Shown here: positions 131 to 1,521 of the stretch, piece after piece
Position numbering within the stretch: the first letter of the stretch is position 1
Layout: every line of letters starts with the position of its first letter
Origin: Escherichia coli
GTDB taxonomy: Bacteria; Pseudomonadota; Gammaproteobacteria; Enterobacterales; Enterobacteriaceae
Direction: 5' to 3' (one strand)
DNA length: 64,000 nucleotides
NCBI RefSeq assembly: GCF_024223415.1
Contig: NZ_CP100500.1
Made by a program: the position numbers and the translations under genes
The notes under the pieces: model-generated
Databases searched by the model: none
Seen by the model: only the letters and a program-made list of their open reading frames with translations
Told to the model about the DNA's origin: nothing

Positions 131-502
131 ATGGAGCCATACAGCCTCACACTCGATGAGGCCTGTCAGTTTCTTAAGATATCCAGACCAACCGCCACCA
201 ACTGGATACGAACAGGCCGCCTACAGGCAACACGTAAAGATCCAACCAAGCCAAAATCTCCTTACCTCACAACACGGCAAGCCTGCATTGCGGCGCTTCA
301 GTCTCCGCTGCATACTGTCCAGGTGAGCGCGGGTGATGGCATAACAGAGGAAAGAAAATGTCACTCTTCCGCAGAAATGAAATATGGTATGCCTCGTATT
401 CGCTCCCGGGCGGGAAACGAATTAAGGAATCTCTTGGCACAAAGGACAAGCGGCAAGCTCAGGAGTTGCACGACAAGCGAAAAGCAGAACTCTGGCGAGT
501 AG
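131..502 (+). CDS. Prophage excisionase-like protein (AlpA/Xis-type HTH), upstream of integrase
   Basis: ORF track 47..502; internal Met at 131 begins [31 protein letters not shown], an AlpA/Xis-like HTH; overlaps the int start as in lambdoid xis-int pairs. True stop uncertain. Confidence 0.5.
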
Positions 503-1521
503 AAAAGCTAGGGGATTTACCTGATGTCACTTTTGAAGAGGCCTGCCTAAGATGGCTTGAGGAAAAAGCTGATAAAAAATCTCTCGATTCAGATAAAAGC
601 CGGATTGAGTTCTAGCTTGAACATTTTGAGGGTATAAGGCTTAAAGATATCTCGGAGGCAAAGATTTACTCTGCTGTAAGCAGAATGCATAACAGAAAGA
701 CGAAAGAAATATGGAAACAGAAAGTTCAGGCCGCCATCAGGAAAGGTAAAGAACCGCCTGTTTATGAACCAAAGCCAGTATCAACTCAGACAAAGGCAAA
801 GCATCTTGCCATGATAAAGGCCATTCTCCGTGCTGCAGAACGCGACTGGAAGTGGCTGGAAAAAGCGCCTGTCATCAAGATACCAGCGGTCAGAAACAAG
901 CGAGTCAGATGGCTGGAAAAGGAGGAAGCAAAACGCCTTATTGATGAGTGCCCCGAACCACTGAAATCTGTCGTCAAGTTTGCGCTGGCAACTGGTCTGA
1001 GAAAGTCGAACATCATAAATCTGGAATGGCAACAAATCGACATGCAGCGACGAGTTGCCTGGGTGAATCCAGAAGAGAGCAAATCAAACCGCGCCATTGG
1101 TGTGGCGCTGAACGATACCGCCTGTAAAGTGTTGCGTGATCAAATAGGCAAGCATCACAAATGGGTGTTTGTACATACCAAGGCGGCTAAGCGAGCAGAT
1201 GGAACATCAACGCCTGCGGTCAGGAAGATGCGCATCGACAGCAAGACATCATGGCTATCAGCTTGTCGTCGTGCAGGAATTGAAGATTTCCGTTTCCATG
1301 ACCTCAGACACACCTGGGCAAGCTGGCTGATCCAGTCAGGCGTCCCATTATCAGTGCTTCAGGAAATGGGCGGATGGGAGTCCATAGAAATGGTTCGTAG
1401 GTATGCTCACCTTGCGCCTAATCATTTGACAGAGCATGCAAGGAAAATAGACGACATTTTTGGTGATAATGTCCCAAATATGTCCCACTCTGGAATTATG
1501 GAGGATATAAAGAAGGCGTAA
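358..1521 (+). pseudogene. intD: DLP12-type prophage tyrosine integrase interrupted by an in-frame TAG (613-615)
   Basis: ORFs 358..615 and 685..1521 are in the same frame, separated by one TAG; the C-terminal part carries the integrase catalytic region (HDLRHTWAS...VRRYAHL); 3' end abuts tRNA-Arg. Confidence 0.8.

Follow-up and report, generated by a model that had tools for sequence, protein, structure and literature searches.

For a lambda- or P22-type prophage to excise, the integrase (Int) must act on attL and attR together with the excisionase (Xis) and host factors. Nonsense mutations in a lambda-family integrase are familiar as laboratory alleles, the int amber mutants of lambda, whose lysogens should be excision-defective, with suppressor hosts expected to relieve the defect. 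Among prophages resident in Escherichia coli, the DLP12 element of K-12 carries an intact integrase gene, intD (b0537, 387 codons), beside the tRNA gene argU, together with an att core of 47 bp (PMC6379469). DLP12 itself is a decayed remnant of 21 kb, and the region upstream of int is damaged, containing partial exonuclease, P and ren genes as well as IS3. Its excision has been measured at under 1 per 100,000 cells in K-12 (PMC3105296), and overexpression of YbcC and IntD leads to DLP12 excision in this strain (bioRxiv 10.1101/2024.12.20.629666). An inactivated prophage integrase has also been described in K-12, as intQ of the Qin prophage, for which excision is undetectable and the integrase is inactive (PMC3105296). 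Loss of the recombinase has been described as one way in which lysogeny becomes irreversible, yielding what has been termed a "grounded prophage" (PMC6379469).

The stretch of DNA analyzed here (the window, 64,000 nucleotides of E. coli contig NZ_CP100500.1) carries the same gene as DLP12 in the same place, with the same 47-bp att core. The frame of intD occupies positions 358-1521 on the plus strand (1,164 nt, 387 codons, with ATG at 358 and TAA at 1519-1521) and contains a single in-frame TAG, at 613-615, corresponding to codon 86. Translation of this frame differs from the 387 residues of K-12 IntD only by W86 to stop, L133P and E379G. These three differences in 387 residues, the position beside the 3' end of argU and the 47-bp core identify the gene as the ortholog of K-12 intD, bearing out the initial annotation, which had named it as a prophage intD interrupted by one TAG in an otherwise continuous frame and had taken the K-12 protein to be an intact one of 387 residues. 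As the frame is more than 99% identical to intact integrases and holds one stop only, it is not a chance pattern of open reading frames. Position 614 is a G in K-12, in the E. coli strains KSC9, KV7 and NCTC10444 and in the phages 2G7b, PhiR68_2 and Kati. Because the reference codon 86 is TGG, the lesion is, by alignment to these references, G614A, which converts TGG to TAG (W86amber), the change that had been proposed as the simplest one. The open reading frame listing accordingly gives a 5' fragment of 85 codons plus the amber stop (358..615, plus strand), and the remainder of the frame (616..1521, plus strand) holds codons 87-387, which supply what is left of the N-terminal half plus the complete catalytic domain. 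Whereas K-12 harbors an intact intD on a decayed remnant, the window thus harbors a broken int, in which the TAG at codon 86 cuts the catalytic domain off from the N-terminal DNA-binding part.

The integrase that would be encoded without the stop is a tyrosine recombinase. In the reconstituted frame, the Pfam Phage_integrase profile (PF00589) matches residues 184-355 (E = 5.5e-47, 160 bits against a cutoff of 27.1), and the box I arginine, the H-x-x-R motif and the tyrosine nucleophile are found as ATGLR (R215), HDLRH (H314, R317) and RRYAH (Y349). These motifs can be aligned with their counterparts in HP1 integrase and XerC-like/Xer recombinases, and all of them lie 3' of the stop. The 85-residue fragment, the only product expected under normal translation of intD, contains no part of the catalytic domain. 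It covers positions 119-195 of the phrog_1 integrase profile and has a weak match to Pfam DUF6538 at residues 3-45 that falls below threshold; a permissive Pfam search of the N-terminal part returned only sub-threshold matches, to DUF6538 at 3-45 and to Phage_int_SAM_5 at 139-171. From this weak profile evidence, the 85-residue product is presumably the N-terminal, arm-binding part alone. The first 197 residues had no match in a sequence search of the PDB, even at E = 10, and a single-sequence AlphaFold2 model of IntD, made for the domain placement of W86, was unusable (mean pLDDT 41.7). With the stop falling ahead of the complete catalytic domain, the IntD product should be inactive, and W86amber should, from the position of the stop relative to that domain, be a null integrase allele. 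Polar effects on other genes are not expected, because intD is the last gene ahead of the convergent argU.

The stop could conceivably be bypassed, either by suppression or readthrough or by cooperation between the 85-residue fragment and a re-initiated C-terminal fragment, leaving the prophage mobile. The first possible restart is the in-frame ATG at 685 (Met110), 70 nt 3' of the stop, which opens a listed reading frame of 278 aa (685-1521, plus strand), and the rest of the frame is undamaged, differing from the nearest intact alleles at just two synonymous sites. In lambda Int, moreover, N- and C-terminal fragments are known to retain some DNA-binding and cleavage activity when separated. 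A recent mutation would, however, be expected to leave the downstream frame undamaged in any case, and no Shine-Dalgarno-like sequence is present upstream of ATG 685 (AAGATTTACTCTGCTGTAAGCAGA-ATG). In lambda Int, the bridging of arm and core sites requires both domains in one chain, and the window encodes no suppressor tRNA, argU being its only tRNA gene. A low level of natural UAG readthrough, or an amber-suppressing tRNA encoded outside the window, would yield some full-length IntD. On balance, a prophage that is still mobile despite the stop appears very unlikely.

The allele is absent from complete genomes. Although about 1,640 of the 5,426 complete RefSeq E. coli genomes carry intD, none of the 5,426 has TAG at this codon when searched with a 41-nt query seeding across the A, and none contains 28-mers spanning TAG. 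With a 111-nt query, approximately 1,637 complete E. coli genomes carry the stretch around the stop, and the best match always has 1 mismatch. The initial annotation had raised, as an alternative to a strain-specific change, a pseudogene of shared ancestry; with TAG absent from all 5,426 complete genomes, the gene is not one. An intact progenitor with the exact intD haplotype of the window was likewise not found among complete genomes, the best match by bit score having 2 mismatches in 1,236 nt.

Public carriers were sought by exact-sequence look-up of the 85-aa product, with counts expressed as index blocks. The 85-aa reading frame, followed 70 nt later by the 278-aa reading frame as in the window, is present in GCA_900482235.1, GCA_965257805.1, SRR19977217, SRR36098277, SRR8689735, ERR14841851 and SRR6764081. 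These carriers fall into three backgrounds. The first is the window's own type, with a yfdP-yfdT early region that includes a Dam gene, and comprises GCA_900482235.1, which differs from the window by 1 SNP in 10.6 kb, and SRR19977217, SRR36098277 and SRR8689735, which show zero differences over the 1.5 kb compared. In the second (GCA_965257805.1 and ERR14841851), the intD allele is KSC9-like and the sequence is that of KSC9 plus G614A over 3.6 kb. The third (SRR6764081) has a lambda Red/Gam-DUF4222 context and downstream SNPs of its own. The TAG carriers thus comprise a small lineage to which the window's genome belongs, plus two other backgrounds, and the stop is not private to one strain, contrary to what the initial annotation had supposed.

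These carriers also bear on whether the TAG is simply a sequencing or assembly error in a gene that is really intact. Such an error would fit with the absence of TAG from every complete RefSeq genome, and draft assemblies do contain single-base errors. The same base is nevertheless found in the independent data sets GCA_900482235.1, SRR19977217, SRR36098277 and SRR8689735, whose sequence matches the window exactly across the 1,564-3,615 nt compared, and the same TAG occurs on two other haplotypes. Its presence in independent data sets all but excludes sequencing error, leaving an artefactual stop with a very small probability, and the stop is best taken as genuine.

The frequency of W86amber was set against that of other prefixes of the same protein. 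The intact 387-aa protein of the same amino-acid haplotype is present in 21,210 blocks. The 85-aa prefix (W86) gave 41 blocks, including several true internal stops on the three backgrounds, and several further apparent matches were rejected as stops because their contigs merely end at 612-614. A neutral 75-aa prefix gave 21 blocks, with contig ends only and no internal stops, and the 118-aa prefix (W119) gave 27 blocks with one true internal stop. For the 65-aa prefix (W66), 103 blocks were found, containing two independent stops, one TAG and one TGA, while the remaining contigs almost all end at nt +196. The 278-aa C-terminal reading frame is present in 119 blocks, in which frameshifts, IS3 and IS66 insertions and deletions are also found ahead of it. 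Intact alleles of intD thus stand against 5'-damaged ones at roughly 21,000 to 120 index blocks, and W86amber accounts for about 0.1% of public intD copies. The gene is intact in the great majority of carriers and is sporadically broken in many ways, W86amber being one of them. As a separate observation, a large number of public contigs end precisely at window position 553 (intD nt +196), after the T of the codon-66 TGG, in 103 blocks as compared to 21 for the neutral prefix. This indicates a branch in assembly graphs, which is probably either a mosaic junction between integrase alleles at the end of the arm-binding domain or a common polymorphism.

The occurrence of one TAG on three intD haplotypes, each with a different prophage early region, could reflect more than neutral decay. 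W86amber might be a recurrent or horizontally spread allele, selected because it locks in a useful or dangerous prophage, or it might mark a mutational hotspot, and it outnumbers the nonsense alleles examined at W66 and W119. A contribution from recombination is also hinted at by the distribution of differences from the closest relatives. The closest complete chromosomes, KV7 and NCTC10444, have 5 differences from the window over 131-22249, and three of these five lie within 830 nt of intD, namely 614 and the synonymous sites 1332 and 1440. The variants 1332C and 1440A are shared with the KSC9-type allele, which also exists with TAG, so that the cluster at 614, 1332 and 1440 could have arrived together in a short recombined tract and not by three independent mutations, and this clustering and match can be counted in favor of horizontal spread. 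The numbers involved are tiny, however, with roughly 20 real W86amber blocks against more than 21,000 intact ones and 0 of 5,426 complete genomes, and much of the excess over other nonsense alleles is repeat sampling of two clones. By a rough inference, independent changes at one neutral or weakly selected G, here a single G-to-A change that recurs, are to be expected in so large a collection, and null lesions of many other kinds exist in intD. Deamination of 5-methylcytosine at a Dcm site was rejected as the source of a hotspot, since the site is TCTGG and not CCWGG. Selection or a hotspot is thus an unlikely account of the allele's distribution. In particular, it is improbable that W86amber arose or spread repeatedly on three backgrounds because locking the argU lambdoid prophage is advantageous, although if this were true the allele would be a small natural case in which selection had favored the grounding of a prophage through one defined point mutation. 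The reading that remains preferred is that of an ordinary, sporadically occurring null allele.

The other components needed for mobility appear to be in place beside the broken integrase. The excisionase gene (xis, P22-type, 123 aa) lies at 131..502 on the plus strand and overlaps the start of intD at 358. Pfam HTH_17 matches residues 6-36 of its product, and residues 1-116 match positions 2-117 of the 117 in phrog_2907 "excisionase" (E = 1e-45), a full-length match to the family. The xis reading frame is 100% identical in the virion-derived phages PhiR49_1, PhiR29_1/2 and Kati, and int and xis are annotated at the homologous stretch in P22-like phages; by these comparisons, xis looks intact in the window. 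In related genomes, RefSeq/PGAP labels the xis region (window 47-502) as a partial HTH pseudogene. Given the full-length excisionase match and the identity in virion-derived phages, this label is probably an over-cautious annotation artefact.

The 47-bp att core adjacent to int (attL, by the lambda convention) lies at 1535..1581 and overlaps the 3' end of argU. It looks intact, and a second, exact copy of the core is found between envY and ompT in KV7. Homology to phages Kati and 2G7b ends at 1581, which places the phage/chromosome junction there. The integration target, argU, encodes tRNA-Arg(TCT) at 1537..1613 on the minus strand (ARAGORN; Rfam tRNA, 72 bits), 16 nt from intD, and is reconstituted by phage DNA. 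A candidate sigma-70-like promoter, with 11/12 matches, is located at 1672-1645 on the minus strand. Beyond argU lie fimZ and then the sfm fimbrial operon, which is the K-12 DLP12/intD neighborhood in reverse orientation.

The description of the element as a prophage remnant in the initial annotation is unsupported, and is a label taken from DLP12 of K-12. The body of the prophage lies outside the window, where further defects, or a second integrase acting as a helper, may be present. The KV7 counterpart, bounded by the 47-bp att repeats, is a complete-looking lambdoid prophage of about 44 kb, with genes for terminase, portal, capsid, tail, tail fibre, lysis, Q and repressor, plus ompT. Compared to DLP12, the window has an intact Xis reading frame, and its lineage has an early region in which the reading frames are intact: the 10 kb upstream of int contain uninterrupted cI-like, Cro, replication, PerC, Dam, RusA and KilA-N frames, and the KilA-N protein is present in 21,082 index blocks. 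The intact allele functions elsewhere: 14 phage genome records carry the int-xis module at a nucleotide identity of at least 99.4%, and DLP12 excises in K-12 at the low rate given above. Phages with the int-xis-attP module at this level include 2G7b, ev243, PhiR68_2, Kati, Turner and the PhiR26/29/30/34/49 series. The int genes of 2G7b, PhiR68_2 and Kati, the three checked, differ from that of the window by 3 nt and are uninterrupted, with TGG at codon 86. The intD lesion resembles intQ of Qin in being an inactivated prophage integrase, but differs from other inactivated prophage integrases in that one recent point mutation has struck a gene that is pristine elsewhere, and reversion, or recombination with an incoming related phage, could repair it. 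It likewise resembles the int amber mutants of lambda in being a nonsense mutation in a lambda-family integrase, but it is carried naturally by wild isolates, and the int/xis module concerned is of P22 type and directed at argU.

Further along the window, an island of approximately 11.65 kb (22250-33901) is inserted 9 nt into allE and is flanked by a 7-nt duplication, GGGATAT, at 22243-22249 and 33895-33901. The island encodes an integrase (32492-33742), a primase (27774-29522) and a major head protein (25038-26093), all on the minus strand, as are its genes for a repressor-like protein, SSB, a PerC-like activator, a head decoration protein and a small-terminase-like protein. It looks like a capsid-forming phage satellite of the cf-PICI-like type, is absent from KV7 and NCTC10444, and has a related copy in AR_0085. 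Just 3' of the primase gene, three copies of GGGGTAGAGGGCTTTT, spaced 73-87 nt apart within 27590-27765, look like the iterons of a replication origin, and a 26-nt exact direct repeat, AATTAACTACACCATTAACTACACCG, lies near both ends of the island, at 22323-22348 and 33743-33768. The insertion splits ATG-GGA-TAT from the body of allE (33894-34679). Stop codons now stand ahead of that body, in which translation could first begin in frame at GTG 33954, giving 241 aa as compared to 261 aa in KV7, and allE may be N-terminally truncated or silenced. Between allE and glxK, at 34686-34820 on the minus strand, are matches to Rfam STnc480 (87.6 bits) and ES036/CssrF (38.1 bits), ordinary enterobacterial sRNAs.

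A genuine G-to-A transition at 614 has converted Trp86 of an IntD-type tyrosine integrase, that of a lambdoid prophage integrated in argU, into an amber stop. Translation should end after 85 residues, with the loss of the catalytic Arg215, His314/Arg317 and Tyr349, and the prophage would be unable to excise or re-integrate, save where the same integrase is supplied by a co-resident phage. Judging from the mechanism of lambda-type integrases, the loss of Int-dependent excision and re-integration, and with it the immobilization of the prophage that the initial annotation had reasonably supposed, is the most likely consequence. Such a change would constitute the grounding step of prophage domestication, despite the intact-looking Xis reading frame and att core. 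That W86amber is a genuine null allele which, through the predicted loss of integrase activity, grounds the argU lambdoid prophage is considered highly probable. The allele is real, rare and ordinary, affects a well-known prophage integrase and involves nothing new in mechanism, and its significance beyond annotation is accordingly small. The intD gene in the window's lineage should be labeled a pseudogene (W86amber), and the SNP can serve as a marker for a small E. coli lineage. The argU prophage is predicted to be excision-defective though otherwise intact-looking, and W86amber would offer a clean example from nature of how prophage domestication begins.
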